A stretch of 64,000 nt of DNA, from NCBI GenBank assembly GCA_964187785.1, contig OZ076413.1, positions 30,752,001-30,816,000 on the forward strand, written 5' to 3'. The notes beneath the pieces are model-generated. The model was not told where the DNA came from. It saw nothing but the letters and a program-made list of their open reading frames with translations, and did no database searches. The stretch's first letter is position 1, and every line of letters starts with the position of its first letter. Position numbers and translations under genes: made by a program. This stretch comes from Amphiscolops sp. MND2022 (taxonomy: Eukaryota). This document shows positions 1 to 18,234 of the stretch, piece by piece.

Positions 1-506
1 TATAAGTCTGAGATAAGACAAGTGCAATGTAAGCAAAGAGAAAGTGGAGAATAAGAGTCGAGGGGGAGAAGGGGGAGAGTAAGTGTAAGAGAAGTAGAGG
101 AATTGATAAGTTGAGAGAGAGAGAGAGAGCTGTAAGTTGAGCTCAGCCGTCCGGCGGGAAAGAATGAATCTCCAGCCTGTGCGCGCGGTATAAAAACAGT
201 TCAGCACAGCTGTTGAAGTGCCTGGCCGGCATGTGTTGCATGCTACCAATGGTAGCTCAGCTTTAAAATTCAAATATCCGCGGTAAGAAATAGAAATTTT
301 CACTAGTGCAATTCCTTTCCCGTAGTATTCCATTACTTATTACTCCACTTCGAGGCCGCCGCGTTATGGCCGCCGCCATATTTACTTCAACTTTCCACTC
401 TCCACACAACGTTAGTTCAAGTTTTATGTTTCTCTTTGCACGTGTTATTTTTTATAATAGAAAGCGCCTTTTGGTGATTCGTTAGAGCGTTAGTCATAGC
501 GCGACA
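1..506 (-). repeat. 3' LTR (partial, truncated by window edge)
   Basis: Matches 16305-16810 with no indel; one substitution seen by eye (444 g vs 16748 a). Begins TGTCGCG on the minus strand. Confidence 0.95.
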
Positions 507-518
507 GCTCACCCCCCT
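507..518 (-). promoter_or_regulatory. Polypurine tract (PPT)
   Basis: Minus strand AGGGGGGTGAGC directly abuts the TG start of the 3' LTR. Confidence 0.75.
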
Positions 519-620
519 GGCAGGGTGAAAAAGCAACAACTTTACTAGAGAAATTTGGGGTCAGGTCAAGAAAGAGGTATTAGGTGAAAGAGCATGAGGG
601 AAGGGGGACATGTTTTAGCA

Positions 621-1523
621 CTAGGGTTTAGAAAAAAGGGGTCTGTCAAATTGAATTTGGATTATGACGGAGTCATTGTTTAGGAAGGCTTCTCTAAAGT
701 TTACCAGGAGTTTTGTGTGCGCGATGAAGTCTTCTCTCATCAGTCCTGGGAGTGTGTAGTCGTTCTTGTGCGGGTCTTCATACTCTTCTGTTTTGGAGGG
801 ATAGGGAAAGGAGATGGACCATTTGTTGTTCTTGTCTTTTTGGTCTATGATTGAGACGATCAATTGTTGCTCGAAAGGCCACGTCCGTGGGAGAGTGAAG
901 TCGCTGGGGTGTAGATCACAAGAAATTGAGGAATGGGTTCCGCGGAAGATGTTGGCGCCATAAGGGAATAGTCTGAGGGATATTTTGCAGCCGGTTAGGT
1001 GGGTAGTGTAGATAGGGCTAGTGAAGCTATTTTTGATGTTGTTCAACGCATCATTCGGGGAGGTCTTTGCTTTTCTGTATAGTGTGGAAAAAGCGGGTAT
1101 GTGCCAAAGGATGGGTTCACCACTTCTTGCGTCTAATACGTTGGTTTTGTTGAGTAGGGCGCCTTGAAACTTGATTGTCGCTTGTAGATTGGATATTGTG
1201 AGTTCCAAGTGATTACATTTAGTCCGCGTTTCTTCTGCCAAGTTTTGGAGTTGTTTCATTTCACTAGCAAACTTTGTTCTAGGCTGTTTTATGTCGGTTA
1301 TGGGAAACGATTTCCTTAGGATCGGGGTTACCTTTTTACTTTGTGGGCTAGTTGAGACTTCCAGTTCAGCGATCCATTTGTTCAATCTTTTGATTCCCTC
1401 GAGTGTCTCGAGGTCATCTTTATTCTCTGTCCTGGATAGAGGTGGCCAGTCGTTAGCTTTGGGGAAGGAAGGAGTGCTTTTTGGGATGAAGGGGATAGCG
1501 TCTGGGTTTAGCCTCCGATTCAT
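621..1523 (-). CDS. TRAF-like accessory protein: N-terminal PAM2-like motif, coiled coil, TRAF-C/MATH domain; no RING or zinc fingers
   Basis: aa ~135-293 (GEPILWHIP...FTSPIYT...GCKISLRLFPYG...RGTHSS...WPFEQQLIVSIIDQ...FLNNDSVIIQIQFD) follows the TRAF-C pattern (G.LIWKI...S.PFYT...GYK...R.Y.NG.G.G.GTHLS...WPF.QKV...L.DQ...Y..DD..FI...VD). Heptad-like stretch at aa ~86-128. LNPDAIPFIP at aa 5-14. Confidence 0.9.
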   Translation of the reverse strand: MNRRLNPDAIPFIPKSTPSFPKANDWPPLSRTENKDDLETLEGIKRLNKWIAELEVSTSPQSKKVTPILRKSFPITDIKQPRTKFASEMKQLQNLAEETRTKCNHLELTISNLQATIKFQGALLNKTNVLDARSGEPILWHIPAFSTLYRKAKTSPNDALNNIKNSFTSPIYTTHLTGCKISLRLFPYGANIFRGTHSSISCDLHPSDFTLPRTWPFEQQLIVSIIDQKDKNNKWSISFPYPSKTEEYEDPHKNDYTLPGLMREDFIAHTKLLVNFREAFLNNDSVIIQIQFDRPLFSKP

Positions 1524-2122
1524 TGTGCTGAGATGGCTCTTAGGGGGACCGTTAGTCTTTGTCCCTTTAGGGCTGGGTTCTCTATGGTGTACTCTTGTCT
1601 CTTGTTATCCCAGAAAACGATTTTCCAAGTTGAGAATTGTGGGAGGAGAGTGTATTTCAACTCTGTGTTGAATCTGGGCTTCTTAACGTGTCTTGCTCGT
1701 TTAGTGAAGTACTCCCGCTTGTGTTGTTTCTTCAGTGGCGTGTCATCTGTTATTTTGTCATTCCATTGTTGTTGGTGTTTCCTGGGTAGTGCCCGTCTTA
1801 TGTCTTTTCCGCCGAAGCGGGGTGGATGTTGGGGCGATCGAGGTGGATGTTGAGTTGATGGGATAGGCGCTACCTCTTCTGTAAATGACAGCGGAAAGGG
1901 GAGTTGTAGTGATGTCGTTGGAGAGGGTGTTGTTGTTAGGGCGCTTGGAATCGGAGAAGGAACTGTTGAGTCTGGGGGATCTAGGAGAAAGGTAATAGTT
2001 GTGGGAGAAGCAGGTGACAGCAGGTCAGAAGGTGATAAGGGTTCTATCTGCAAGTCGTCTTCTAAGATAGAGTTAGGGATGTCGTCGTCCAGGTTTGGGA
2101 GGTCGAATAAGGGTTCTAAATT
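1520..2122 (-). CDS. Accessory ORF without AUG: acidic/Pro-Ser-Thr-rich N-terminus, basic NLS-like patch, short beta-rich C-terminus
   Basis: The frame is open from 2122 (NLEPLFDLPNLDDDIPNSILEDDLQIEPL...) to TGA at 1520-1522 and contains no Met. It is preceded by GTTTACGTTTAG, which is acceptor-like. Its stop overlaps the TRAF ORF start (ATGA). Confidence 0.6.
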   Translation of the reverse strand, partial: NLEPLFDLPNLDDDIPNSILEDDLQIEPLSPSDLLSPASPTTITFLLDPPDSTVPSPIPSALTTTPSPTTSLQLPFPLSFTEEVAPIPSTQHPPRSPQHPPRFGGKDIRRALPRKHQQQWNDKITDDTPLKKQHKREYFTKRARHVKKPRFNTELKYTLLPQFSTWKIVFWDNKRQEYTIENPALKGQRLTVPLRAISAQ

Positions 2123-2153
2123 CTAAACGTAAACTACGAAATGAGATAATAAT

Positions 2154-4303
2154 TCATATTGGAGCAACAAAGCTCTGTACCGAGGGATATAGTGATTCCT
2201 CTTTTTGTTTTAGGATTTGGAGTTCTACTCCTTTTTCTTCGTCTTCTGTTTTTACCCTTTTGTCTTCAATGCTATCCTCGAAAGGGGCCCGCGGGGTAAA
2301 TACGGAAGTTAAAACAGAGGTAAAGAAAAGGTTGTACGAAGCACTGAGCAAGGTTTTAGTGAAGCTCAGTGTGTTACCTGTAAGGTGACGAAGTTCGAAG
2401 TAGCGGAAGACTAGTACCGTGATATCTATGACGAACTTGATAAAAAGGAAAGCGCCAAAGTACGCTCCGCAGAGTTCTAGTACATAAGATATACTTCCGA
2501 ATGTTTCGAGGAACTGATTTTTAAAGTAGTCGGGTGAAATCATTCCGTCGACATAGAAATCTGTACGAGGTGCGTAATACGCGAAGGATTCTGGTCCGCT
2601 GTGGGCCATGGAGGGTATGATGAGCTCTCTTGAGAACTTCTGGAGGGCATTACGTGATGCGGCGCTGATGAGGATGTTGTCCCAAAACTCGGAGAGTTGC
2701 TTGGGAGTGTACATTCCCGCGTCCTGTGATCCTGGGAAAGATCTGGTAATCATTGGCTGGATGTCTTTGGGTCCGAAGATAGCAGGCCGGTCCCGATGTT
2801 CGGGTGAAGGTGTAAGGGTGAACCAGGAGTCCTTGTCTTCCATGTCCAGTTGGAAGAGGTTCTTAATACGATCTGTGCAGTTTTGTACGTTCGCGTTAGG
2901 ATATGTTTGTCGGGTTATGGGGTCTACAAAGGCGACCACTCCCTTGTAGAAGATTGGTATGCGGTCGTAGCATTGGTTCATCGTGTGAAGAGGTGAGTGG
3001 GATTCCGGGCAGTGGTAGAGCCATGCGAGGCTACCATCTGTGTTCAGGAACATCGAGCGATTTCCCGTGAGCATGTATCCGGCGAGTCGTGGGTTTTCCA
3101 TGGATAACATCAGGATGGTAAGGATTTGTGTTCGTTCTTGCTCACATTGAGCTTTCAATAGCTGGATCTCTGAAGCTTCGAGTAAGCGGGTGCTCTCAAA
3201 GAAGAGATAATCTAACTTGGTTCCTTGGTGGAGTTCGTAATCCATGTTGAGATAATGTGGTGTGTTGGGGTTGGAGTCGCTGGGGCCTCTGAAGAGGTGG
3301 AGTCTGCCATTACCAGAACCATCGTTGGGTGAGTAATATTGAAGTTTGGAGGTTTCTCCCATGGAGATGCCGAGTCGTCTGCCAGAAGTCATGTCGAAGC
3401 CACCAAATTGGGTCGAAACGTAGAGGGATTCATAATTGGTAGGGTAGACATCATCGGGTTTGTTGCAGTATTTCTGTGGCCTGTTGTATATTTCGAATAG
3501 GAACTTGGTAGTGGAGTCGTTGCCGCTAACTATATAGTAGTTAGAGCCATGTTTGATCATATTCACTATTTCTTTTCTGTGGACTGCGAGCACGCAGTTA
3601 TCTGGCTCTGCCCATGTATAGGCGTACGGGTCCAATGACGTGGTTTCGCAGCCGAGTTGTTCCAGGGGGCAGGGGAGAACCATCTGGAAGGGTGTGAGGA
3701 TTTTCCCGTCTCTGGTTTTGACTGATAATTCTACGTCTTGAATATGAGATTCGAAGGTTTCGCGTTTAATCCATCCGCCTGTCTTGCACTCATTACGGGT
3801 ATCAGGGTCACGTACTCCATCCCAACTTTTTCCGTATTTGGCGTTTCTCGTCTGTACTTGTTTGACTCCTTTCTTAAATTTGAGGGGTTGTCCATGGATC
3901 ATGACTTCTTTGCCTTCGCCCATGGCCTTACAGGTTTCGGGTGACAAGGAAATATCGCTGGTGATTCCGTTGTGTAGGATTGACATACTGGAGTGGTCAT
4001 TATGACCACAATGCCATTCTTCACACTCTGGTGTTTCACACGGCACATAGTAGCGTTGATAGTGCGACGAAAGTGTTTAGTGTATAACGTCACGCTAGCA
4101 CGACTTACTTCTAAGTTTTCCGGGGCCACATTGCATTGCTCTACTTGATTCAAGGCGTAGAGCTTATTTTGTGTCATTTCGCCGCAGTCGAAATGAGTTA
4201 CTCGCAATTTTTTAGCAACGCTAGCGAGGTTTGGCGTTGAACGTTGTGAGTTCACAACGGGCGCGAAATTGGCGCATAAGAAGAGTAAGAAAAATAATTT
4301 CAT
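2154..4303 (-). CDS. env: Envelope-like type I membrane glycoprotein, probably class III fusogen-like; ~715 aa if the single frameshift near 4020-4030 is repaired
   Basis: Signal peptide MKLFFLLFLCANFAPVVNS. Cys-rich ectodomain starting HFDC...YALNQVEQC and continuing WHCG, with N-glycosylation sequons. C-terminal hydrophobic segment YVLELCGAYFGAFLFIKFVIDITVLVF. ORFs 3899-4303 and 2154-4046 overlap in different frames and join as ...CRVKHQS(EE)WHCGHND. Confidence 0.85.
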
Positions 4304-4382
4304 TGTTGAAATTCTTCAGTCTGTTTTTGAATCAACCGTGTAATCGCTCCCTGTTAAAGAATCAGTTTAAGTGTTTAGTAGA

Positions 4383-4838
4383 GACCGTAAAGAGGCAAGC
4401 CGTAATATCAAACCGGCAGCTTAGCTGGCACAACACTAAGCGGAGGTTAAAATTTTATAGTAGTAACCTCACTACTGTTAAAACGTGCCGAGGGGAACGA
4501 TAAGTATTTTATTATTTCAGGGAAATAGGTGTGTGTTCCAGAGAGGAGGATTCGTAGTAAGGCCGTAAAAAGGCAAGTCGTAATATCAAACCGACAGCTT
4601 AGTGGGCACTAGCACTAAGCGGAGGCTAAAATTTTATAGTAGTAACCTCACTACTGTTAAAAAAAAAGTGCCGAAGAGTAGGTTAATTATTGGAGCTTTA
4701 GTATATTTTATTATTGAGGATCCGTTATAAGGCCGTAAAAAGGCAAGCCGTAATATCAAACCGGCAGCTTAGTGGGCACTCGCACTAAGCGGAGGTTAAA
4801 ATTTTATAGTAGTAACCTCACTACTGTTAAAAAGTGCC
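4383..4838 (-). ncRNA. Three copies (4383-4489, 4561-4672, 4731-4838) of a ~108-nt structured, pseudoknotted cis-RNA motif upstream of env
   Basis: Conserved pairings AGUAG/CUACU with GAGGUUA/UAACCUC (H-type pseudoknot), GCUUAG(UG)/(CA)CUAAGC, GCCG/CGGC, and 5' GGCAC with loop GUGCC. Compensatory GCCG/CGGC to GUCG/CGAC change in the middle copy. Spacers between copies are unrelated. Confidence 0.7.
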
Positions 4839-4883
4839 AAAATAGGAAGTTAAAAGAGACTAACTTCAACCATTGCTGAAAGT

Positions 4884-5228
4884 TCAATTGTAGTTGTCAC
4901 GGATTGATTGTAGACTGGGAGAGGTTTTGTTTCGTCTTCTCAATTCGAGGAAGTCAATGAGCTTGTTGAGGAGGAACAGTGTTAGAGGGTGGATGTGGTC
5001 GAGATAGGCAATTTGCCTATATTCCTTTAGTGCGAGTGAGAGATCAGTAGCCTCTTGGGAGTTGGTGTCAACTGGGATGAGCCAATGTCCTGGGTTTTGC
5101 GGTCGGAGGCTATGGAGTTCGATTTGTAGTGAAGGTGCGTTTTCTTTCCAAGCGATAGAGAGAATTTCGAGAAGTGTATTTGTTTCAGGGTGGCGCCAGA
5201 GAAACTTGAGTTGAATCTTAAACATCAT
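4884..5228 (-). CDS. Small accessory ORF (114 aa), unknown function
   Basis: ATG start overlaps the upstream ORF stop (ATGATGTTTAA). Globular-looking composition; shares a motif with neighbouring small ORFs. Confidence 0.7.
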   Translation of the reverse strand: MMFKIQLKFLWRHPETNTLLEILSIAWKENAPSLQIELHSLRPQNPGHWLIPVDTNSQEATDLSLALKEYRQIAYLDHIHPLTLFLLNKLIDFLELRRRNKTSPSLQSIRDNYN

Positions 5229-5613
5229 AAGTGTCGACTAGGCTGTGAAGGTATTTGATTCTAACTTCTTCTTCGAAGGGGTTGGAGGTGAGAGTGATGT
5301 CCATAAAATAAACCAAGTCGTCGAAAGCCTTGTCTTTGAGAACTGCGGGGTGTTGGAGGATGTATTGCTTGAACGAAAGGAATAAGTAGGCGTATTCCTT
5401 GGATCCGAAGTGAATAGGGAAGAGGACTAGAGCTTCTTTGTCTTCTGGTGTGAGTATACGCACTTGAATCGCAGAGGTTGTGATCTCGTAGAAGATTGAC
5501 TGTATTTCGTATTGGCCCTTGAGTTGTATGGGAGTCCAAGGAACAGGAGGTTGAAACTGTGTGTGGAAGTAGTAATTATTTCCGCGGAACACGGCGACTG
5601 CGGGAGAGGACAT
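5218..5613 (-). CDS. Small accessory ORF (131 aa), unknown function
   Basis: ATG overlaps the previous stop as TAATG at 5611-5615; shared motif with neighbours. Confidence 0.72.
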   Translation of the reverse strand: MSSPAVAVFRGNNYYFHTQFQPPVPWTPIQLKGQYEIQSIFYEITTSAIQVRILTPEDKEALVLFPIHFGSKEYAYLFLSFKQYILQHPAVLKDKAFDDLVYFMDITLTSNPFEEEVRIKYLHSLVDTYDV

Positions 5614-5834
5614 TAAATGACTGACTTGGCTCTTGTGACGACTTCAGTAGGGGTGTTGTTATATAGCAAGCTCTCCAGTAGAGGGTAGATAGGTGATGCT
5701 GGCACACAAGTGTAGGTTTCACTTTCTTCTTCTGCTATTGCGTATGCTTGTACGATAATGTTCTGCGTTGAGGGTTCCTTCTGGATATCTGTGATTTGTG
5801 AAAGACGGTTGTCGATTTTGAAGATTATGATCAT
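5613..5834 (-). CDS. Small accessory ORF (73 aa), unknown function
   Basis: First of three coupled ORFs; starts at the edge of the AT-rich 5835-6123 spacer; shared motif with neighbours. Confidence 0.62.
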   Translation of the reverse strand: MIIIFKIDNRLSQITDIQKEPSTQNIIVQAYAIAEEESETYTCVPASPIYPLLESLLYNNTPTEVVTRAKSVI

Positions 5835-6123
5835 CTGTGAGATACTTCAGTGTTCACTGTTGTTCAAACATGGCAAATCTGAGAATGTAATCATCAGTTA
5901 TTTCATTGCGTTGGAGGACAGAGGTGTTTGAAAAGTATAAACACGATCTCGTAGAAGATCGTGGTTGAGTACAGAGAAGTTTCAAAAGATATATTCTATC
6001 TATTGTAGGATTATCGTAGGCGGTTTAGGCAAATAACCATAAGATATTGTTATAAAATAAGAGATAAATATTTGTTTAAGCATGCATTACTTTAGGACAA
6101 AAAAAAGCTAAGATATCTTCAGA

Positions 6124-6768
6124 ATGAGTAACAACAACGAGTCTGACTACTACGAGGAATCATCGACCGATGAGGAAACAGTTGCGTCTGCTGCTTCGTC
6201 GTCTGCTCCCTCGTCGTCTGCTCCCTCGTCGTCTGCTCCCTCGTCGTCTGTGGGCCCTTCGTCGGCCGCTGGGCCTTCTTTGTCGTTGGCTGGGCCTTCT
6301 TTGTCGGCGGCTGGGCCGTCCTCCTCTTCTGCGCCTGTTGCTGCTGTGGCCCCCAGGCCAGTCCTGCAGGCCTCCACAGTAGTGGCTCAAGGGGTTTTAG
6401 AGAACCCCGGAGAGCAGAGTTTTCTCAGCCTCTTTAACCGGAGGGACGTGGACCGGTTAGAGAATTGGGCCTCTTTGTCCCGTTCCATGCGGGGGTCTCC
6501 CGGGTTTGCCTTATCTGGGGCGCCCATCCCAAATGCCTTTGTGAGCTTCTTGAGGGCCAACCTGGGAGCCCGTTGGGAGGGAACCCTCCTGTCCCCTCTA
6601 GGGGAATTAGTGCTGTGTTAACTGAGGGCCTATATAGATGGGTTCTGCCAGTTGACCAGCTTCGAGAGGGGGCAGTGGGTGAGGCTGTACCAGTTATGGA
6701 CCAGAGAGGAGCGGGCTTCCCAGTTGAGGCGGCTAGCGGAGAAAGGCGGTTTCCTGGAGATTGAGTAG
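6124..6768 (+). CDS. Antisense accessory ORF (acidic N-terminus, Ser/Ala/Pro repeats, helical-looking C-terminus) with an in-frame TAA at 6619-6621
   Basis: ATG 6124 to TAA 6621 gives 165 aa. The same frame stays open for 48 more codons (LRAYIDGFCQLTSFERGQWVRLYQLWTREERASQLRRLAEKGGFLEIE) to TAG 6766-6768. 15-bp (SSSAP x3) and 21-bp tandem repeats keep the frame. Confidence 0.55.
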
Positions 6769-6930
6769 GCGCAAGTCGCCTCTCATCTCCAGGAAAATTC
6801 TCTACTATTTTTATACGCTTCTGTGCTTGTGGCTTTTCGTAAGTCATGTTCGGGATTGCACAAATAATATCGATAAACGGAAGTAGAATATATTAAAGGT
6901 AATACATCGCTAATAGGTTAAATGTGCCGG

Positions 6931-7317
6931 CTAGGAGCTAGGTGAGGAGATAGTCGAGCAGCAGAATAGGTCCTTTTGAGTATTGGGTGAGGAAGGTTGT
7001 AGGTCAGGAATTAGGGTAGGCATGTAGGATAAGAGTTCTTCTAGGATAGGGTCGTGATGGTTGACTGCATGGTAGGCTAGGTGCTGATATAGTTGAGCAA
7101 ACGTTTTGGATTCTGGGTGAACATGAAGATTTGATTTTCGGGGCGTAGGTTGTTTGTGGGGGCTCGGGTCTGGGTCGTTGGAGTAGAAGCAAATTCTAAT
7201 TAGTTTGTTTGTGTAGGTCCAGTAGATTTTTGTGATTGTAACGTGTAGAACGTTTAAGGATTGGAGTTCTCGTGGAACTTGCCATGATAAATTTAGGTAA
7301 ACTTTATGACAAGGCAT
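6931..7317 (-). CDS. Small accessory ORF (128 aa) immediately after pol
   Basis: ATG lies 8 nt downstream of the pol stop; shares a motif with the 73/131/114-aa ORFs. Confidence 0.65.
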   Translation of the reverse strand: MPCHKVYLNLSWQVPRELQSLNVLHVTITKIYWTYTNKLIRICFYSNDPDPSPHKQPTPRKSNLHVHPESKTFAQLYQHLAYHAVNHHDPILEELLSYMPTLIPDLQPSSPNTQKDLFCCSTISSPSS

Positions 7318-7325
7318 GATGTAGA

Positions 7326-10300
7326 TTAGGCTTTGTAGCCTACGCGAGTTTTTTGCCGAAGGATGGACAGTGGTGCTGGTTGGTTGGGTTGTGCTCGCTG
7401 ATAGCGGGGATTTCTTTCGACGTGACTTGCAACCGCTCGCCTGAGTTCTTGTAGGGGTGTCAAAGATTTGGTCGAAGTAGCCGGTGTGGTAGTCAAGGGT
7501 TCGGGTGTTATTTGTTGCGTCAGTGTTTGGATAGGAGTAGTTGAACCAGGAGGACGGGATGTAGTAGGCTGATCCGGAGTTGTTGGTGTTCCCAACCGGT
7601 GATTTTCTGGGGAAATAATACCAGAGTCGGTGCTCTGGGGAGTTCTCACTCGTTTTTGTGCGGTGGTCTGTCTTTGTTGGTTTCGGACTGGTAAAATGCA
7701 GAGATCCCCGAGTATCTGTGGTTCTGAAACATTAAGTCGTTCTATTCTTCCTTTGACAAAATTGTTATAGAAATCCGTGTCTCCACGGTAGGGAGTTGTG
7801 TATTCTTCTATAAGAGGGGGGAGTGTTTCCTCTTTGGGAAAGTATTCTATTAAATGATTTCTATGGACTGTTCGGAGATTTTCGGGGTTTTGATCGTTTT
7901 TTATTTGGTATGTTGTGTTGGTGATTCTCTTGGTAACTGTAAATGGTCCTAATCGCAGTTGTTGAAGTTTTTGGCTTTTGGAGAGGTCTTTCCGATGGTT
8001 TTCTAACAAGACCTTTTGTCCGATGTTGAGATGGCTGCCTAGTTTAAATCTGTTTCTGTAGGCATGAGATCTAGCTGTTTGTTTTCTGCATTTTTCGTAA
8101 GTGGACGAATAGATTTTCTTGAAGGCGGTCTCTCTTTCAAGCAAGTTTTGAGATAGTTGAGGTCTTAATAGTCCATTCAGCAGTTCGTTTTTGACTTGGT
8201 TTTCGCTGTGGCAGTGAGGAGGCAGTCCGTTGCAGAACTGTGATCTGCAATTCTTGTTTTTATTACGGTATAGACCCAACTTAAGACTCATAGGTATCTG
8301 TGGTTTATTGCAGAAGACTATTTCGTATGGTGTCTTTCCAGTGGTATAGTTGACGCTTGTGTTGTGGGCAAATGCGAATTTAGCAGCTAGTTGGGCCCAG
8401 TTGTTTCCTGAGTCGTTTAAGAAGTTTCTCCAGTACCTTGCAATGTGTTGGTTTTGGGTTTCCACTTTTCCGTTAGTCCAGGGTGAGTGTGCAGTTCTTG
8501 GCCGGAGAGTGATGCCTAACTCTTTAGTCCAATTGACGAATTCAGTGTTTACGAAAGCCGTTCCTCTATCGTGTATGATAGACTGCGGTATCCCATAGTG
8601 CATAATCCATTTTTCCATAGCGTTGATTGTTGACTGTGCACCTGTGTCTCTAACTGGGTATGCCATCAAGTAGCGTGAAAATGCGTCGATGATGAGGAGG
8701 CAATGTGAATTTCCACGACTGGGAGGGTTGAGTGGTCCCTTGTGATCGATATGAACAGTTCTGAATACTTGGGTCTCGGTTTCACAGTCCTCCAGTGGGA
8801 CTTCGTTATTTCTTCTTTGTTTGGATTTGTTAGATTGGCAGCTAACGCAATCTTGTGTGAGGGCACAAATCCAGTCGTGCATCCCGGGCCAGTAGTAGAA
8901 TCTTTTAGCATTTAGGTAGGTTTTCTCGGCTCCCATATGGCCTCCGAGGTCGTTGTAGTGTCCTAATCGGAAGCAGGCGAGAAATAAGGAGAGTGGTAAG
9001 CATATTCGAAGATTTTCTTCTTCCGTCTTATCTGTAGGTTCATTGTAGCACAGTAGGTTTCCGTTTTCTTCTATGGTCAATCTATCAAACTCTTGGGAAT
9101 AGCGCATGAGTCCTTTAGAGTGTTGTAATTCTGGTGATTTTGGCGTAGGCCTGTTTCCGGTTTGTATCCATCGTCGAACCACACTGAGCACCGGGTCATT
9201 GATCTGTTCTTGTAAGATTGTTGTGACGTCTAGATCCACTTCTTTTGATATTTTGTCGAGTTGACTGACGAGCTCTCGGGCTGGGGTCTTGTGTTTTTCC
9301 GTTGAATTTGTAGGTAGACTGAGGTGTTCTATTGCCTTTGCATTTTCGGGAATACCTGTGTTACGTGCGGTGAGATCTTCAGTGTTGAGCTCGTAGTTGG
9401 TCTCGTTTACTTCATGACTTTGGTTGTCTGTGCAGGCTTCATCATCTGCATCGCTATTGATGGAGCTGTAAGTATTCTGAGACGAATCGGAAGTGCTATC
9501 CCTTGTCCCGGATCTGATTTTTAGCTCTGAAAATTTTCCTAGTTCTCTTCCAGCGTCGAGACAACTCTGTGCTGACTCTATTTTCGGCAGGTTAGGTTCC
9601 TCGTAGATATTGTTAACTGTGAAGTTATTTCCATCGTTTTGCAGGTGAAGAATTTTTCGTTCATCTCCTTTTTCGTACAGGATGGGGTAGAAATCGTTTT
9701 TTGACGTTTCTTCGTTTTCTTCGTGTTTTATTTTGTAGTGTATTTGGGTTCCATGCTCGTCGAAGAAGTGAATATCGTTCGGTAGGATTTTGTGACTGAG
9801 TTGATGTTTTTTGTGTTCTTCTATCGATACGTTTCTGCTGAGTATATCAGGGAAGGCTAAATTGCTTCCTGGGGTCCAAATTATCTTGAGATTTGGGAAT
9901 TTAGAGATTATTACTTGGTACCTGAAGAAACGCGGTGAAACTTGTCCTTTTCGTCCCCAGAGATAAAGAATTGGTTTGTGGTCACAATATAAGTAAATTG
10001 GAAAGGGAGATCCAATGATATAGTGTTCGTAGGTTTGTAATGCTGAGACTATTCCACATAGTTCTCTATGTAGAGTAGACATTTTTTGTTCTTCTTTTGC
10101 GAAGACTCTGGAATTGAAAGAAATGATCCGTTTCCCTTCTGGAAATTGTTGTATGAGGATACATCCTGTCCCTACGTTGGACGAGTCGACGTGTATATGA
10201 AAGGGATATTTTGTTGAAGGTACCGCAAGAACTGTGTCTTCGCTGATTCTTTTCTTTATTTGTTGGAAGAGGTCTTCATGTTCTTGGTTCCAACAGAAAT

Positions 10301-12836
10301 TTGTATCCTTTTTTGTGAGTTCGTAAAAGGGTCGACTATCGACGTGAAGGTTCTTGATGTAGCAGCTGTAGAAACCTAAGGCTCCCAAGAAGCTTTTCAC
10401 TTCGGTTTTGGTTTTTGGTGATTTGAGATTATGTAGGTCTCTTACTCGTTTAGCTACGGGTTGTATTCCTTCTGCTGCAATCACATGTCCCAAAAACTTG
10501 ACTTTCCTCAAGAAGAAGAGTGTTTTGTCAGGTGCCGCTTTTAGTCCCGCTTTCCGTAGTAGGTTATGGTATTCTTGAATCACTGTGAACATTTCTTGTT
10601 TACTTTTCGCTTGCATCAACGTGTCGTCTATGTAGGTGATTGCTTGTTTCTTTTTAATGAGAGGTTCGAAGTGAATTGTCATCATTCGGCTAAAGAAGCT
10701 TGGTAACCCTTTAAGTCCGTAGAATCCTCTGGTGAAGGTGTATTGTTTCCCGCCTATGATGAAGCTTGTAAGTTTTTGTGTAGGCTCGTCTAATGGGACT
10801 TGGTGAAATGCACAGGAGAGATCACTTACTGAGAAGATGTTCCCGTTGATTAGTGTCATTATGGTTTGGATCGGTTCTAAGGGCCAGGAGTAGTTTGTTA
10901 GATCCGTCACTGAATTTAGGTATCTTGCGTCTATGATCAGTTTTACATAGTCGTGTTTTGGTTGTAGTATAATAGGATTTACGAATAAGGATCCCATTTC
11001 GTCGTCATCGCCCATCTCTCTGATAATATCGGCGTCTTTGAGTTGTGTGAGTAGCTTCTCTAACTTTTCTCTTAGGTGAAGTGGTACTTTGCTGGGTCTC
11101 TGTCTCTTCAGGATTGCTCCAGGTTCGAGTTTGATGTTAAATTTCTGTCTGGTTTTTCCTACGTCGAATTTGTGTTGGGAGTATACATCTCTCGCATCCA
11201 TTAGTTGGTCTATTAGGAGCACAAGTTCCTCGTCAGTAAGGTCTGAGTAGCGAAAGTCGAATTCTTTGATGTATTGCACTGCTTCTTTGTTCTGGTACTG
11301 AAGGTAATACTCGATCAGTCTTTCGTTGTCTTCTTTTTGCCTGAAGATTTTAAATTGCTCATCGCAGGGTGGTTGACAAGACTTTGCGTCACTCGTAAAG
11401 TCTGTCTCCAGCTCTCTATGTTTAAGGTGAAATTGCTCGGAAAATTGTTGTATCTCGTCTTCCAGCGCGTATTCGGGGTCTCCTCTCGTAGTCATAGCAT
11501 AGACGTCTAGTTCATTTCTTGTATAAATTCGGAGTTGTATTTCCGAGTAGGCAAAAACATCTTGAATAATTTGTGTCACATCTTGCCATTGGAAATCTTC
11601 TAGTTCTGACGCTTCTCGTAACATAGAAATGGTCTTGATACAATTCATTTTGGCGTGTGCTTTTAGAGTCTCTAGCGTTTGGACTAAGATTTGTGGGTCG
11701 ATTTTGTCTTTTGATTTAGCTTTTGTGATTAGGACGTATATGAATCGTTTTAGATTCATGTCCCAGTAAGGTATTGTATCCCCTTTGAGTGGTTTCTGTT
11801 TTGCGCAAGATTCTTTTAACAAGGGTATGTTCGTTAGGATTTCTTTCGAGAAGCCTTTGGCTGGCTTCAGATCTGCCGGGACAAAGATCATGATGGAGTC
11901 GGGTCTGCTGAGGATTGTAGTAGAATTTCCTCCTTCTATTCTGATGCAATCGTTCATATCTTGTGAAGGGATGGTGGAGTGCAACAGGAAACAGTCATTG
12001 TATTCTTCGTTTTCGTTTAGGATAGCGTAGGCGAGTTCCGTAGGGTTTCTAACTTGGTATTTTGGAATTTCTTGGTCTAATACGTCGAGCAGAGAGTATC
12101 CAATAGTTCCTTTTACTAGGGTGATTGTATGGTTTTTGTTATTTTCCATGACGATTGGCAAAGTCTTCTCAAATCTTGTACAAAGGACATTTATAAAATT
12201 TAGTCCTGTAGAGACTGCTTTTCTGTTGGGTAGGAACGTAGATCCGGGAGGAAAGGAGTTCTTGGGGTTTTCCGGTGCAAATTTGTAACATCTTGTCGTC
12301 TTTGGTTCGATATACATTGAGTGAGGAATTCGGACTGAGAGTATTTGTGATACGTAGGGGTAACATTTGTTGAGTTGTAGACTGCCATAGCAGAAAGTAT
12401 TTATAGGTCTTTTGAGTTCTATGCCAGGAAGATCAAAGTGTATTTTGTTAACTTGTTCTTGACAGAAGTTCATTCCAAGGAGGTTTTGGGTCTTCATCTC
12501 TGTTATCCAGACTGTCAGTGGGAAGTTATGTTGTCCATCGGAATCGTAGTAGAGTTTAAGGGTGATGTATCCCATCATAGGGATGATCTGCCCAGAGTAG
12601 TTCCGTGTTGTGTTGTTACTTCTGCTGAGTTCGAGGTCTTGTTGAAATTGACAGAGTTCTCTAAAGGTCCTGTAGTTAATGATTGAAGATGTTGCCCCAG
12701 TGTCTAGTAGAAATTCGATTTCTAAGCCACTATCTTTTTGTGAGTCTCCGGCAGCAAAATAATAAAGATTAAGACTAAATTTTAGTGGGGCAGTGCTGCT
12801 GTTACGGTTTTTCGGAGACCTTAATAGTTTAAAGGG
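7326..12836 (-). CDS. pol: Pol: aspartic protease, dUTPase-like spacer, TARG1-like macrodomain, RT, RNase H, integrase
   Basis: The frame is open upstream of the tracked ATG to the gag end and includes FLLDTGA (DTG at 12696-12704). RT YIDD; RNase H HVDSSNVG...DHKP; IN HHCC (H...GH...CVSC), D-D-E core (HIDHKGP, HDRGTAF, KVETQN) and LGPF. Confidence 0.96.
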   Translation of the reverse strand, partial: PFKLLRSPKNRNSSTAPLKFSLNLYYFAAGDSQKDSGLEIEFLLDTGATSSIINYRTFRELCQFQQDLELSRSNNTTRNYSGQIIPMMGYITLKLYYDSDGQHNFPLTVWITEMKTQNLLGMNFCQEQVNKIHFDLPGIELKRPINTFCYGSLQLNKCYPYVSQILSVRIPHSMYIEPKTTRCYKFAPENPKNSFPPGSTFLPNRKAVSTGLNFINVLCTRFEKTLPIVMENNKNHTITLVKGTIGYSLLDVLDQEIPKYQVRNPTELAYAILNENEEYNDCFLLHSTIPSQDMNDCIRIEGGNSTTILSRPDSIMIFVPADLKPAKGFSKEILTNIPLLKESCAKQKPLKGDTIPYWDMNLKRFIYVLITKAKSKDKIDPQILVQTLETLKAHAKMNCIKTISMLREASELEDFQWQDVTQIIQDVFAYSEIQLRIYTRNELDVYAMTTRGDPEYALEDEIQQFSEQFHLKHRELETDFTSDAKSCQPPCDEQFKIFRQKEDNERLIEYYLQYQNKEAVQYIKEFDFRYSDLTDEELVLLIDQLMDARDVYSQHKFDVGKTRQKFNIKLEPGAILKRQRPSKVPLHLREKLEKLLTQLKDADIIREMGDDDEMGSLFVNPIILQPKHDYVKLIIDARYLNSVTDLTNYSWPLEPIQTIMTLINGNIFSVSDLSCAFHQVPLDEPTQKLTSFIIGGKQYTFTRGFYGLKGLPSFFSRMMTIHFEPLIKKKQAITYIDDTLMQAKSKQEMFTVIQEYHNLLRKAGLKAAPDKTLFFLRKVKFLGHVIAAEGIQPVAKRVRDLHNLKSPKTKTEVKSFLGALGFYSCYIKNLHVDSRPFYELTKKDTNFCWNQEHEDLFQQIKKRISEDTVLAVPSTKYPFHIHVDSSNVGTGCILIQQFPEGKRIISFNSRVFAKEEQKMSTLHRELCGIVSALQTYEHYIIGSPFPIYLYCDHKPILYLWGRKGQVSPRFFRYQVIISKFPNLKIIWTPGSNLAFPDILSRNVSIEEHKKHQLSHKILPNDIHFFDEHGTQIHYKIKHEENEETSKNDFYPILYEKGDERKILHLQNDGNNFTVNNIYEEPNLPKIESAQSCLDAGRELGKFSELKIRSGTRDSTSDSSQNTYSSINSDADDEACTDNQSHEVNETNYELNTEDLTARNTGIPENAKAIEHLSLPTNSTEKHKTPARELVSQLDKISKEVDLDVTTILQEQINDPVLSVVRRWIQTGNRPTPKSPELQHSKGLMRYSQEFDRLTIEENGNLLCYNEPTDKTEEENLRICLPLSLFLACFRLGHYNDLGGHMGAEKTYLNAKRFYYWPGMHDWICALTQDCVSCQSNKSKQRRNNEVPLEDCETETQVFRTVHIDHKGPLNPPSRGNSHCLLIIDAFSRYLMAYPVRDTGAQSTINAMEKWIMHYGIPQSIIHDRGTAFVNTEFVNWTKELGITLRPRTAHSPWTNGKVETQNQHIARYWRNFLNDSGNNWAQLAAKFAFAHNTSVNYTTGKTPYEIVFCNKPQIPMSLKLGLYRNKNKNCRSQFCNGLPPHCHSENQVKNELLNGLLRPQLSQNLLERETAFKKIYSSTYEKCRKQTARSHAYRNRFKLGSHLNIGQKVLLENHRKDLSKSQKLQQLRLGPFTVTKRITNTTYQIKNDQNPENLRTVHRNHLIEYFPKEETLPPLIEEYTTPYRGDTDFYNNFVKGRIERLNVSEPQILGDLCILPVRNQQRQTTAQKRVRTPQSTDSGIISPENHRLGTPTTPDQPTTSRPPGSTTPIQTLTQQITPEPLTTTPATSTKSLTPLQELRRAVASHVERNPRYQRAQPNQPAPLSILRQKTRVGYKA
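11520..11948 (-). other. TARG1/OARD1 (Poa1p-like) macrodomain within Pol
   Basis: RFIYVLITKAKSKDKIDPQILVQTLETLKAHAKMNCIKTISMLREASELEDFQWQDVTQIIQDVFAYSEIQLRIYT aligns by eye, without gaps, to the TARG1 C-terminal half as recalled (RYIYYLITK...L..SLEAMKSH...LSMPRIGCGLDRLQW..V...IEEVF...I.I.VY). Confidence 0.8.
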
Positions 12837-14275
12837 CGAATATCGGCGACAGAGTTCACCGAGTAATCTGTTTCGAGAAACTGTACGGTGTTATGTCTTC
12901 CCATGTCGTTAGTTCTAGGGAACCTTTGTTCGTAGGTTTGAGTGGGGGTGTTTGGTCTTTCGTTTCTGTTTTGTGGTCTATTAAAGACTGAGTTATTCCT
13001 TGGTGGAAGAGGCTGTATGTTGCGGTTGAAGGAGTTAGGCTGGTCTCTGTTGAAGCTGAACGGAGATCTTGCTCTTTGGGGCCCAGGAGAAACACTTCTG
13101 GAATTGTTAGAATTGTTTAGAAAAGGTCTTCTTCCTTCTTGTGAAAATCTTTGGTTACCAGGACTGAATCTTGTATTCATAGGTCGGCGTTCTGGGTTGA
13201 AATTTCTTCTTTGTGGTCTATCATATTGGTTCCGGGCAGGGTTTGACTGCATGGCTCCAGCAAGTGCTAGTTGATGTGCCACAGCCATATGTTTTCTGAT
13301 TTCTGAATCGGGTAGTCTAGTTTGGAATCTAGAACCATGTCCAGGTCCAGTTCTTTTGTTGTAATCGTTGGTGAAAGTTATTCGTCTCTCTGGGTTGGAT
13401 TCATTTTGAACTTTCTTGATTTCTTCATCTCTCATCTTCTTTCTGCACCAGTTAGGCGTATGCCCATTTGTTCGGCAGTAGCTGCAAAACCTGGTGGCCA
13501 TTCTACGTCCTGTTGCGTTCGGATCAACAGTTTTCTCTATTGCATTAATAGTGTTGTTCGTCTGTTCTTTGATTTGTAGCTTGATTCCTTTGATGTCTTC
13601 TCGCAATTCTTGGATGAGTGGGTCTGCGTGTGATTCTCCACCGGTGAGAGAGGTAGTTACTGTGTAAGAAAGGTCTTTGTTTATTACAGCTTGAGAGAAC
13701 TGCTCCCAGGTTGCATTCGGATGATCCATTAAGTATTCGTGTGCCTTTTCCCTCAGTTTCGGGGGTCGAAGGCCTCTCAGTGAGTAGTCAATGCACCTCT
13801 GTCTTCTTTGTCTGTCTTGTGCTGCTCTTTCGGCGTCTCTATTGTTCTGTGCGACTCCGGCTAGATCATCTGGCCATCCTTTTCCGACTACTATTTTAAT
13901 TCTGTGTAGGAAGTTCTTTATTTCTTCTCCATCTCGTCTGATGACGTGTTCGGCTTCCATTCTGTGTCTAAATTTGTTTCTGCCATCTGCGAATCGCGTT
14001 ATGAACCTCTCTCTGATTTCTGCCCAAGTGTTAGCGTCTGTGATGCTGGTCTCGAACCACTCTGCTGCGGGTCCTCTTAATAGTGTAGCAAAATAGGATT
14101 TTCTTCTGAAGTTGTAGTCATCAAGTGCTGGTCCGTTGGCCGGGGTATCACCGTGAGAAAACCGGAACTTCTTTTCAATGAGCTGTATGAATTGTTCAGG
14201 ATCTTGATCTGGGTCTGTTCCTGTGAATTGGTCTCGGCCTAGGTCTGGATAAGCCAAGTAATTTTGCGCAGCCAT
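12821..14275 (-). CDS. gag: Gag (capsid-like region, CCHC zinc knuckle, Arg/Asn/Pro-rich tail)
   Basis: 484-aa ORF upstream of pol; CSYCRTNGHTPNWC = C-X2-C-X4-H-X4-C; LRGPAAEWF and LRGLRP resemble retrotransposon capsid motifs. Confidence 0.92.
   Translation of the reverse strand: MAAQNYLAYPDLGRDQFTGTDPDQDPEQFIQLIEKKFRFSHGDTPANGPALDDYNFRRKSYFATLLRGPAAEWFETSITDANTWAEIRERFITRFADGRNKFRHRMEAEHVIRRDGEEIKNFLHRIKIVVGKGWPDDLAGVAQNNRDAERAAQDRQRRQRCIDYSLRGLRPPKLREKAHEYLMDHPNATWEQFSQAVINKDLSYTVTTSLTGGESHADPLIQELREDIKGIKLQIKEQTNNTINAIEKTVDPNATGRRMATRFCSYCRTNGHTPNWCRKKMRDEEIKKVQNESNPERRITFTNDYNKRTGPGHGSRFQTRLPDSEIRKHMAVAHQLALAGAMQSNPARNQYDRPQRRNFNPERRPMNTRFSPGNQRFSQEGRRPFLNNSNNSRSVSPGPQRARSPFSFNRDQPNSFNRNIQPLPPRNNSVFNRPQNRNERPNTPTQTYEQRFPRTNDMGRHNTVQFLETDYSVNSVADIRPLNY
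12827..12836 (-). promoter_or_regulatory. -1 programmed ribosomal frameshift site (overlapping C CCU UUA and U UUA AAC)
   Basis: Minus strand CCCTTTAAAC is in the gag frame two codons before the gag TAA. The pol frame is -1 relative to gag and open through this site. Confidence 0.85.
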
Positions 14276-15290
14276 TGTGAGCTATTGAGGTTATAAAAGA
14301 TAGAAGATGAAGTAAGGAAAAATAAGCCAAAGACTCTGTGAGGTATGATACTCCTGGTTTTTGAGAGTAACTACAAAGAGCGGAAGTAAAAATTGTTTGT
14401 ACAATGATTCTAACAGTGATAATTATTAGGCAGGTCTGACAAAACATATACTCCGTAATTCGCTGCTAGTAAAAATGAAATTAGCGCATCTCAGCCCAGG
14501 ATAGGCACATTCCCAGTATTTATTACTGAAATTTCAAAATTTTTAGGGGATACTTACAAATCCCGCTTGTGTTACGATTACCGTAAAAAGGGTAGTTCGG
14601 AGTATACCAATCCTCCGAGTTAAGCTTAAAAGATTGGAGAGTACAGTCGGTCCAATAGGTCTTCAATTCGCTAGACTAGCCTTTCAATGGCTTTTGTAAA
14701 AGTAGTACTAGAACTAACCAACAGAGGGAGTCACTCTCGTCCTCAGGATTAAGTGCGCGGGGCCAAGATCACTATCATGCAAACACTCGGGTACTATCAC
14801 TAGAATACTAGGTTTCCCACTTGGAATGCTACACAGGTTCCGGGACACCCACTGGGCTCACGGCCTTCAACCAGTCTCCGAGGAGACCTAGGCGGGCTTT
14901 TACTTAATGTGTGTCCGTCTGGACTTGAGTGAACTTCCCAACTGTAAGTTTAAATTCCGTGTTAGAGGGCAGTTTCATTCTTGTTTAGGACCGAATGTAG
15001 TCTAGCATTTCCGTAAAAATAGATCAGCGCTAACCTTTTTGTGGATTGAGAGGACTAAGTTGGGTAGAGCACAGTCTCTTCCAACGGCTGTTAAGCTGGA
15101 GAGATTCTATTAGAGTATTTACTAGCAGTTCTGTAATTTATATAGACTAAAGAAGCCACATATTGGGGCAGTAGGAGAAAAAAGAAAATCAGAAGTAAGA
15201 TTAAGAGAAATAGGTAGTTAACCCTAACTTCTGAGAGTAGGGATTCGAACAGATTGCTCATTTACTTCTCTATAGTAAGAGAAAAAGGAT

Positions 15291-15308
15291 GCCTCACTGG
15301 TCGCACCA
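15291..15308 (-). promoter_or_regulatory. Primer binding site
   Basis: TGGTGCGACCAGTGAGGC starts 3 nt after the 5' LTR end, complementary to a tRNA 3' CCA end. The tRNA identity was not determined. Confidence 0.85.
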
Positions 15309-15311
15309 GTT

Positions 15312-16810
15312 TGTCGCACGCATGGATAAATTTCAGTTCTGCTATTTTACAGTTTCCTCTTTTAGAGGGGAATTCCAAATTTGTTATCCGTATTAGTCAG
15401 CCCAGCTGTTACAACATTTGGCAAAATGCTTTTCCAACAACTGTTGTTTTATTGAAGTAGAACAAGTAGAAAAGTCTCAATAACTTAATTTCTTTTTTGT
15501 AATACCGAAAAGAAAGTGCCTTGCGTGTACGTGCGAACAAAGGAACTTGCGTGAGTAAGTGCAAGGCAGGGAATGTAAATGAGCTCTCTGAACTAAAAAA
15601 AAAAACATATGTTAGCAAACTTGTTGAATTACATAAAAGAGTTGAACTTCAGACATATCAGTTTTTATTCAACTGTTTACAAGTATTCAGTCAAACTCAC
15701 CAAATTTATTTGCCAGCAACCGAAGTAATATCTTAGCTATTTCAATTTAGAGCATAAATTGATGAAGAAATTTAGCATCGAAGGAAATTCATAGTAATTT
15801 CCTTTAGTTCGAAGAAAGTTTTTTTACGAAAAATCCAGTTTTGGTGTTGTAATAACTTAGACAACACTATTTAATTTTATAGTCTCTACTCCTTTGTTTT
15901 AGGAATAGCATTAAGACTTTAGGAATAGCATCTTTTTTTTTTTTTTGAATATGGGAATGGTAAAGACAAATAAGTTAACAGGGGAAAACCGCAGAATTAA
16001 ATCAGCAGAATTATTCTAAGATAGAATTTTAACAACCGCAGAATTAAATCAGCGGAATTATTATAAGATAGAATCCGCAGAATTGAATCAGCGGAATTAT
16101 TCTAAGATAGAGTTTAGTTAGAAGGAGGGAGAGTAAAAAATCTCCTCTAAAAGAAAAAATCTAAGATATTTTCGACTCACCCAACTGGAGACCAAGTTGA
16201 ATTGAAGAGAATTTTCTAAGATAGAAAATTCTGTTGGGGAATAGAGAAAAGGAAAAGATAAGTTTTTGCTTGAGGAAAGGGAGAAAAGGAGGAAAGTTTG
16301 ACTTTATAAGTCTGAGATAAGACAAGTGCAATGTAAGCAAAGAGAAAGTGGAGAATAAGAGTCGAGGGGGAGAAGGGGGAGAGTAAGTGTAAGAGAAGTA
16401 GAGGAATTGATAAGTTGAGAGAGAGAGAGAGAGCTGTAAGTTGAGCTCAGCCGTCCGGCGGGAAAGAATGAATCTCCAGCCTGTGCGCGCGGTATAAAAA
16501 CAGTTCAGCACAGCTGTTGAAGTGCCTGGCCGGCATGTGTTGCATGCTACCAATGGTAGCTCAGCTTTAAAATTCAAATATCCGCGGTAAGAAATAGAAA
16601 TTTTCACTAGTGCAATTCCTTTCCCGTAGTATTCCATTACTTATTACTCCACTTCGAGGCCGCCGCGTTATGGCCGCCGCCATATTTACTTCAACTTTCC
16701 ACTCTCCACACAACGTTAGTTCAAGTTTTATGTTTCTCTTTGCACGTATTATTTTTTATAATAGAAAGCGCCTTTTGGTGATTCGTTAGAGCGTTAGTCA
16801 TAGCGCGACA
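15312..16810 (-). repeat. 5' LTR, 1499 bp, termini TGTCGC...GCGACA
   Basis: 6-bp terminal inverted repeat with TG...CA ends; PBS adjacent; right part is duplicated at 1-506. Confidence 0.92.
15989..16113. repeat. Three 39-bp imperfect direct repeats inside the LTR
   Basis: ccgcagaattaaatcagc(a/g)gaattatt(c/a)taagatagaat at 15989, 16036 and 16075. Confidence 0.9.
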
Positions 16811-18234
16811 TATGGCTCATTGGATAAGATACTGCCCGACATCCTAAACGGCAAACTGAAAGTTGTCCAAAACCGGAGAAAGACGGAATCAAACACCGAT
16901 GATAACGAAGATGACGGAGGAGAGATGCCGGAAGAATCCATACAACATATCAGAACGCGATTGGCGGTACGACCAAAACGGACATATTCGGAAGACGACG
17001 TGATATAGATTCACACTGACGGTGAAATCCCACAGGGTGAGAAAACGTAACCTATAATACGGTGACCTAGCCGAATTAAAAACAAATTGAATAGACACGG
17101 TAGCATACCATATACTGGAAGTTTTTGGGGGATAAAATTGTTAGAAATGTTTATACTATTGCAGGTACTAAGTGGAACGCAAGAAAAGAAACACCACTGC
17201 CCGAGAACGTTCAGAAGCCTGCCGACTTCTTGCTTGGGGAAATGACCCCACCGGGATCATCATTCTTCCTCTAAAACGACAAATGGGAGAGGGAGAGAGG
17301 GGGAAAGTAAAACGATTGACTCCAATTTTAGTCTGAAATTTTTTAGTGACGGCATCAATTGTACCAAACTTGCCACCGCGTTATTGCCAAAGTTCAACTA
17401 GACAACACTGGCAAATGGGTTTTGTCGCCGTGGACTTGTTAGCTCGACAATGCAAACAGGTTTTTCACCCTTCAAATCTCGGCTTTGAACTTTGGACGAC
17501 CGTAATGCGAAGGAACACAGATTTCACCACAGTGCGCTTGGACTTAGCGTTTCCAGTGTGCAACTGAAATTTTTCTGTTTGCGGAATGTAAGGCACTTTC
17601 TAGCTACCCACCTCCAAGGTTAGACACGACTTTCACTTCATCTAGCCACCCAGTGTGAAAACGTTTGAAACTCTTGATAAAAATCTTGCATTTTCGTGAA
17701 ACCCTTGGTAAGAATCTTGGCAAGATAATTATCAAGAGCCCCAAGAATATGTACGATCTTGCAAGATCTTGCAAAGAATTCAAGAGAAAAACTGACAAAC
17801 GTGAATAAAAACAAACAAAAACCGACGCCAACTCGCGGCTTGATCAGTGTACCTATTATACCGCAGAAGTTCACGCTACCAACCAAGCTGTTACGTTCTG
17901 GATTATTATACTTTGTCTTGTCATAAAAGGAACGCTTCAAAGAATGACAGTGTAGTTGGTGGTGCGAACAATAGCAAAGCAGGTGTAAACAAAATTGTTG
18001 TTTGTTTTGCAAGTATTCATTTTCTTGACACTCTTGATAAGACTCCCACCAAGATTCATCTCAAGAAGTTCAAGAGGTTCTTCTTGAGAGGTTCTTACGG
18101 GAATATGTAAGAATATGAAAGATCTTGGCAAGAGTTTCAAGATGTTTTGCACTGGGCAGTTCAACTTGAAACTGTTCAACTTCAGTTGCCACCGAAGTGC
18201 CAAAAGAAGGCCTCCCAGCATCTAGCTTAACCGT

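Follow-up and report, generated by a model that had tools for sequence, protein, structure and literature searches.

Introduction

Ty3/Gypsy elements that carry env, the 'ancient errantiviruses' with an HSV/gB-type ENV, have already been described (PMC13524379), and the word 'accessory' is absent from the main text of that paper. The census reported there permitted a POL-ENV gap of at most 1000 nt outside insects, so that elements with a long pol-env spacer would likely have been missed. Among RNA viruses, the hapaviruses (rhabdoviruses) carry duplicated accessory genes, which encode the P-M intergenic proteins U1/U2/U3 (PMIPs; PMC4334499). Here we describe a retroelement with an array of small accessory ORFs, found in a 64,000-nucleotide stretch of the Amphiscolops sp. 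MND2022 genome (hereafter the window). We found no published account of the domain family that these ORFs encode, subscription papers and Repbase being outside the scope of the search.

Results

Four small ORFs lie between pol and env of a young Ty3/Gypsy element

A Ty3/Gypsy element of about 17.8 kb in total fills bases 1-16810 of the window on the minus strand. Read along that strand, its genes are gag, pol, the accessory ORFs A, B, C and D, env and a TRAF-type MATH ORF, so the accessory ORFs sit between pol and a gB-type env. The features are as follows.

15312..16810, minus strand: 5' LTR, 1.5 kb, TG...CA
12821..14275, minus strand: gag, 484 aa; Retrotrans_gag E 1.2e-4, under the curated cut-off
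7326..12720, minus strand: pol; RT, RNase H and integrase come after a protease motif, LLDTGA, near 12700
7317-6931, minus strand: ORF A, 128 aa, starting 8 nt past the pol stop
6124..6768, plus strand: antisense ORF between A and B, with a low-complexity Ser-rich start and a conserved, helical-looking end
5834-5613, minus strand: ORF B, 73 aa; its stop codon and the start codon of C share bases in TAATG
5613-5218, minus strand: ORF C, 131 aa
5228-4884, minus strand: ORF D, 114 aa, with an 11-nt overlap with the end of C
4382..4826, minus strand: three repeats at a spacing of about 175 nt, lying between D and env; each contains covarying pseudoknot-like pairing and two hairpin stems
2154..4303, minus strand: env, class III (gB-like) fusion glycoprotein; PF24664 Monjiviricetes_fusion, E 2e-20
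621..1523, minus strand: 300 aa ORF that encodes a TRAF-type MATH domain and lies past env, ahead of the 3' LTR; PF22486 E 9e-12, PF21355 E 1e-10
1..506 within the window, minus strand: 3' LTR, which runs on for about 1 kb ahead of base 1

The PR-RT-RH-IN domain order in pol is that of Ty3/Gypsy elements. The paired TG...CA LTRs, a putative primer-binding site that starts with TGG after the 5' LTR, and a 4-bp target duplication (TATG) at the element ends are those of an LTR retrotransposon, and the class III fusogen homology 3' of pol is that of an errantivirus-like gB-type ENV. In the window copy env is broken over two frames (4303-3899 and 3986-2154); it is continuous in other copies. The element is young, its 5' and 3' LTRs being 99.67% identical. 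Among the 46 DNA matches listed, 13 were 99-100% identical across the whole accessory region, and protein C has at least 105 matches in the genome, of which at least about 60 span nearly the whole protein with 89% identity or more. As far as the accessible part of PMC13524379 goes, the element resembles the ancient errantiviruses in its gag-pol-env order, class III fusogen, LTRs, multiple copies and youth, whereas it differs from them in its 3-kb pol-env spacer, which holds five extra ORFs, and in a MATH ORF after env.

Other features of the element and its surroundings were also seen. Short tandem repeats with a spacing of 39-47 nt lie inside the LTR (window 15986-16225). Divergence is much faster in the MATH ORF, which is down to 35% identity where env is still at 74-76%. 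Internally deleted copies are many; four of them (L125, L126, L128 and L129) are reduced to pieces of pol, D, env and MATH. A second identical direct-repeat pair in the window (19479-19778 and 27402-27701, 7.9 kb apart) represents another LTR element.

The initial annotation had listed the four small ORFs, and all of them are present on the minus strand at the limits given above. They are not contiguous, 1.1 kb that includes the antisense ORF parting A from B. The antisense ORF is 214 aa long in most close copies and has a stop at 6619-6621 in the window copy; it gave no Pfam match, and no link to the accessory domain was seen. No other gene of the element varies as much (40-66% identity from one subfamily to another), yet it is under constraint (dN/dS 0.13-0.24); it seems to have been exchanged among otherwise near-identical copies.

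The repeats downstream of D share an RNA motif of about 100 nt, in which two interleaved stems (a pseudoknot or a switch) are combined with two hairpins, and the motif also occurs at L124:3744-4163 and L112:5158-5432. Of all cells in the repeat alignment 96% pair, and seven pairs show two-sided changes, a result reached by 0 of 500 shuffles. A search of Rfam gave no match at E<=1 in window 1-17000. The motif could be a ribozyme, a nuclease block or a translation element. At L134:8160-8780 a different, four-copy repeat occupies the same place.

Arrays of small ORFs differ between sister families

The loci sampled comprised 20 stretches from weaker protein hits, 18 env loci and 20 further stretches from sister-ORF searches; the 18 env loci were taken, for varied frame lengths, from 68 scored of 5,701 candidates. 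Other small-ORF arrays were found at the same place in 10 of the 18 env loci examined and were absent in the other 8. A family at 77% pol identity to the window element retains all four slots at 50-68% identity. Two sister families have arrays of their own, one of 71+106+106+132 aa (E, F, G and H) and the other of 136+72+154 aa (I, J and K). F and G are about 59-60% identical, I and K 31% identical (E 5e-13), and hhalign gave E <1e-4 in nine of the ten pairs among F, G, H, I and K. At L143 a single ORF starts as F and goes on as G, a chimera of the kind that recombination between tandem copies would give. These comparisons show a gain and loss of copies in the sister families via tandem duplication and recombination.

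A tree of 22 observed copies, with E, J and B left out, has one starred group each for C and for D and a less well supported group for A (74/86); the split that parts A, C and D from F-K has 88/93 and is unstarred. Because A, C and D are each one group across the subfamilies, their duplications predate the subfamilies, and a separate expansion of the array in each lineage is possible. The serial duplication proposed in the initial annotation is supported for A, C and D and likely for B, and the sister families hold tandem duplicates as well.

Decayed copies contain tandem repeats of accessory segments: C-D occurs twice in L123:4204-5661, and four I-type matches lie within 12 kb at G000:C1:65344070-65355788. 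In a related family an extra sense ORF of 176 aa lies between A and B (L112:3329-3859, plus strand, and L111); it looks MATH-like by eye and has no Pfam match. Weak C-like matches at L149 and L150 were dropped, there being no element genes beside them.

The accessory proteins are small, soluble and intact in most copies

All four ORFs are intact in the window copy, and among the 20 best genomic copies A is intact in 19, B in 20, C in 19 and D in 20. The small proteins have no membrane or signal segment (maximum 19-residue hydropathy 0.4-1.3) and are mostly neutral or acidic, with a pI of 4.5 for B and 5.2 for C; F, G and H are acidic too. Conservation falls on hydrophobic or aromatic positions and on a helix-capping Ser, and among the positions checked no catalytic-type residue is common to all. 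An aromatic residue on strand 2 is conserved as Trp (87-97%) in A, D and the merged F, G, H, I and K set (FK), and as Tyr in C. The capping Ser is found in A, B, C, D and E/J and is invariant.

Neighboring ORFs are closely joined. TAATG stop-start junctions occur at B-C and J-K, E and F are adjacent, and C and D overlap, suggesting that the small ORFs may be translated in a coupled manner. The UGGGA (TURBS) motif is absent within 120 nt of all eight stop-start junctions of the window family and is present at three of the four sister-family junctions.

A, C and D form one protein family

The initial annotation regarded the four ORFs as copies of one duplicated alpha/beta domain because of an ungapped 18-residue block and a following block with a fixed Ser. 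The 18-residue blocks do occur, letter for letter, at A27, B13, C36 and D21, and the Ser blocks at A66, B43, C67 and D53, 12-21 residues past them. The quoted block is the best four-way ungapped 18-mer, with a sum-of-pairs score of 78 against a shuffle mean of 61.6, reached by 2 of 60 shuffles. The corresponding score for A, C and D only, 53, was reached by 34 of 300 shuffles and is therefore not beyond chance. The block is thus marginal by itself, and the case for paralogy rests on profiles.

Profiles were compared with hhalign, using a 46-sequence profile for A and, for the sister families, the FK profile, which contains no window sequence. A matched C with E 1.6e-4 (score 28.9, 85 columns), C matched D with E 1.7e-3 (24.3, 86 columns), A matched FK with E 7e-5 (29.8, 70 columns), and D matched FK with E 0.016 (18.2, 89 columns). 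Reversed and shuffled control profiles scored 17.8 or less, and the top scores against 32 decoy profiles (pol, env, gag and MATH) were 16.9-18.7 per query. An independent scorer gave z values of 7.3 for A-C, 7.5 for C-D, 4.3 for A-FK and 3.4 for D-FK. The direct A-D match was not significant by hhalign (E 0.52) or by the independent scorer (z 0.8). One match of A, to the 71-72 aa family, was rejected because it was in the wrong register (score 19.3, z 4.0); a score of 19.3 is thus at noise level, so the D-FK score counts only alongside the following ranking.

We ranked 3,479 distinct six-frame ORFs, taken from all loci fetched, against each profile. With the FK profile, D (E 8.9e-4) and A (3.6e-3) rank right below the profile's own members and above every unlabelled ORF, the best of which has E 0.27. 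The C profile likewise places D (4.6e-4) and A (0.034) above all unlabelled ORFs, and with the A and D profiles C ties with the best unlabelled ORF of the set. These full-length profile matches in one register place A, C and D in one protein family. The proposal of a single duplicated domain therefore holds for A, C and D, whose profile matches exceed the controls, and is likely for B, which has no sequence link; in the profile-profile check A-C and C-D were significant, but A-D and B with any partner were not. The register first drawn by eye agrees with the profile alignments and with two independent AlphaFold models, of A and of B.

Predicted structures and the standing of ORF B

The AlphaFold models cover A and B. 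The model of A (mean pLDDT 81) has the elements E4-13, H16-21, E25-33, E40-46, E61-66, H71-86 and H90-102, giving a predicted b1-a0-b2-b3-b4-a1-a2 domain in residues 1-102 that is followed by a disordered tail. The model of B (mean pLDDT 78), with E4-7, E10-19, E26-32, E37-43 and H50-58, is a predicted b1-b2-b3-b4-a1 fold that weakly resembles an SH3/KOW-like barrel. All six top structural neighbors of B are domain I of EF-P/eIF5A (Z 4.4-5.5, rmsd 1.8-2.9, 48-53 residues aligned), the best being 8s8u_B (Z 5.5, rmsd 2.5, 52 aligned), and further neighbors are other SH3, Tudor and KOW barrels. The neighbors of A are mostly PH-like, with a best Z of 4.3 and none at 5 or above (VIA-align), and A also aligns to the same EF-P chains at Z 3.2-3.3. 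All these matches have Z < 6, a range that the tool calls common, and so indicate a fold class only. The KOW-like SH3 barrel of EF-P/eIF5A domain I is accordingly the nearest fold to B as a likeness of fold class, with no family assignment; the small ORFs differ from it in showing 6-14% identity, no profile match and extra C-terminal helices.

Database searches gave no named family or confident fold for the accessory domain. Pfam returned nothing significant for A-D or the sister-family ORFs, Foldseek at E<=0.001 gave no match for A (PDB, BFVD) or B (BFVD), and a tblastn search of phages with A gave none. Matches to PDB sequences, an Hsp90 (E 0.015) and a channel (E 1.6), were rejected as too weak. 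In the ESM Atlas the best matches, 0.79 for B and 0.89 for A, are to unnamed eukaryotic clusters and serve as leads only. The A profile, searched against 1.84 billion representatives, matched 61 unnamed proteins at E<=0.001; one of them, P0016, has no match above 42% in the genome, so part of this set comes from other DNA.

B could be a minimal or shortened member of the A/C/D family or a separate small SH3-like gene that has come to resemble the others through a convergent beta-meander-plus-helix pattern. The second reading draws on the lack of any significant link from B to A, C, D or FK by hhalign, by the independent scorer or in the 3,479-ORF ranking (best z 2.8, to E/J), and on the unlike best fold neighbors, EF-P for B and PH-like for A. 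Against it, the two models share the order of four strands and a helix, and their strands end in the same register: counted from the 18-residue block, both place the end of strand 2 at +6 and the whole of strand 3 at +13 to +19, with the last residue of strand 4 four positions ahead of the Ser, which is invariant. In addition, A and B share 7 of their top 50 structural neighbors (Z 3.2-5.5), six of them aligned over almost the same stretch of the target, and both sister families have a 71-72 aa ORF of similar pattern that is coupled to the following paralogue. We therefore consider that B is probably a shortened member of the family; a separate origin of B, which concerns B only, is the less likely reading, though one of some weight.

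The accessory genes evolve under constraint

dN/dS was estimated by the Nei-Gojobori method between intact subfamily copies, several deep pairs being saturated. Values were 0.05-0.17 for A, 0.02-0.05 for B, 0.02-0.07 for C and 0.07-0.12 for D, none of them near or above 1 over a gene, and 0.05-0.08 for pol and 0.035-0.042 for env (0.035-0.083 for both together). Because A-D are intact in copies and under purifying selection, they are genes. Over long distances A-D outpace pol, with 49-61% identity where pol holds 79%. dS varies widely among neighboring genes, which suggests that modules may have been exchanged between subfamilies. The paralogues of the window element are about 20% identical to each other, and this low identity would reflect age under constraint, not current positive selection.

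A second carrier of the accessory domain

Outside the retroelement, too, A-type genes reach a high copy number. A head-to-head pair of them, about 4 kb apart, is present at each of four loci examined, within a collinear repeat that exceeds 20 kb in length; one such gene, P0067, is 43% like A. The ORFs of this repeat include SET (E 1.6e-6) and JmjC/cupin-like (E 0.001-0.03, under the cut-off) sequences, and neither pol nor env was seen among the ORFs listed at these loci. DNA likeness between the repeat and the LTR element is limited to 150 bases of the A gene.

Many copies of the repeat are located close to the end of a contig or on a contig of small size, and several repeat loci (L171-L178, L182-L184 and L188-L190, on G000:C813, C8, C2 and C11) also hold histone H1-like repeat ORFs. 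Near a SET-like ORF and upstream of a high-copy A-type gene is a 304 aa ORF (L179:6540-7454 and L180:546-917, both minus strand) without a Pfam match, whose His/Tyr pattern we take to be reminiscent of tyrosine recombinases.

Discussion

What the accessory proteins may do

Our leading explanation, which we hold tentatively, is that A, C and D arose long ago as tandem duplicates of a small soluble domain of four strands and two helices, with B as a likely minimal copy, and that together they are putative non-enzymatic binding adaptors to conserved host proteins that would silence or sense the element. B, C and D would be made from one message through stop-start reinitiation. After duplication each copy may have adopted its own partner and then been held fixed, which would explain both the low identity between paralogues and the strong constraint within slots; the partners would be host silencing or innate-immune factors. 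Host-factor adaptors fit best with proteins that are soluble, mostly neutral or acidic, optional, conserved in several copies and common to a repeat with chromatin modifiers. The SET/JmjC-like genes beside the domain and the TRAF-type MATH ORF in the element both point to host-directed cargo, and the weak fold neighbors, SH3/KOW/Tudor for B and PH-like for A, are interaction modules and count in favor of adaptors. Purifying selection, which suits any conserved role and not solely a host-directed one, counts against this explanation, as do the absence of UGGGA from the window-family junctions, the low Z-scores of every fold match, the non-significant A-D comparison and the lack of a sequence match between B and the other three.

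The main rival, which we judge unlikely yet worth keeping in sight, is that the small proteins regulate in trans the RNA of the element itself, at the level of export, translation or reinitiation; they would be Rev- or CERV-like and possibly act on the triplicated structured RNA downstream. In its favor are the covarying repeats directly after D, the tight stop-start junctions on a presumed polycistronic message, and the EF-P/eIF5A likeness of the six best B matches, shared by A; CERV provides a precedent (PMC10309623, accessible part). Those fold matches, however, have low Z-scores and 6-14% identity, B and C, as well as F, G and H, are acidic, and a large repeat beside which no pol or env was seen carries the domain as well.

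A role as matrix- or tegument-like particle accessories, which would help a gB-type envelope assemble with the capsid, is improbable: every array examined sits just upstream of env and is constrained as much as env, but 8 of 18 env-bearing loci lack an array, the number of copies is variable, a repeat with no env nearby carries A-type genes, membrane anchors are absent and Foldseek found no significant viral match for A or B in BFVD. Going beyond the adaptor explanation, one can also imagine a portable anti-silencing kit, in which SH3/Tudor-like decoy domains, undescribed so far, were multiplied gene-accordion style by the selfish elements of one animal lineage and exchanged by enveloped retrotransposons and a large DNA repeat with SET/JmjC genes, so that every copy would sequester its own host factor of chromatin or small-RNA silencing; this we regard as a long shot. 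Rev-like, Tudor decoy and gene accordion are analogies only.

The initial annotation had joined serial duplication to rapid, positively selected divergence in an ongoing host arms race, and this we now consider very unlikely; an antagonist role of A-D is a putative one. In favor of such divergence, the paralogues are dissimilar, dN reaches 2-2.7 times the pol value in the deepest comparison, and copy number shifts in the sister families. Against it, gene-level dN/dS is 0.02-0.17 in all unsaturated comparisons of the window family, close to pol and env, 0.08-0.30 in the sister families and 0.18 for the young F/G paralogues, and each slot is conserved across subfamilies.

Comparison with known systems

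The comparisons below draw on the accessible parts of the papers cited. Small accessory proteins with real roles are known from LTR elements, and A-D are soluble paralogues, in contrast to both examples: sORF2 of the Drosophila MDG1-group elements, which with sORF1 forms one such case, is a membrane fusogen in env-less elements (bioRxiv 10.1101/2025.03.14.642691), and CERV of Cer1 is a single spliced export factor (PMC10309623). The giant Gypsy elements of planarians named Burro likewise carry TRAF/MATH cargo, which was read as meddling with host pathways, whereas an array of small paralogues such as that of the window element is not mentioned in the accessible part of the report (PMC6431247). 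The additional ORFs of bdelloid LTR elements are alike in that family-specific cargo is common to unlike mobile elements, but they encode single recognizable enzymes (GDSL, DEDDy) and not an unnamed domain in arrays (PMC5408684).

Extra ORFs of LTR elements are usually single captured enzymes, whereas here an unnamed domain, also common to an unrelated repeat, has been expanded to 2-4 conserved paralogues. The long pol-env spacer in which these lie reveals a class of enveloped elements that was probably filtered out of the recent census (PMC13524379). The proteins themselves, being small, soluble and predicted to be well folded, are easy baits for host anti-retroelement factors. The arrays occur in several active env-bearing families, and they resemble the growth of accessory genes in complex RNA viruses. 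The closest parallel in arrangement is offered by the hapavirus PMIPs, which are also small genes duplicated at one junction with low paralogue identity, UAAUG-type stop-start junctions and mostly unknown function (PMC4334499); they belong to an RNA virus and not to a retroelement, and A-D are without TURBS, so that the likeness is one of arrangement, with no homology claimed.
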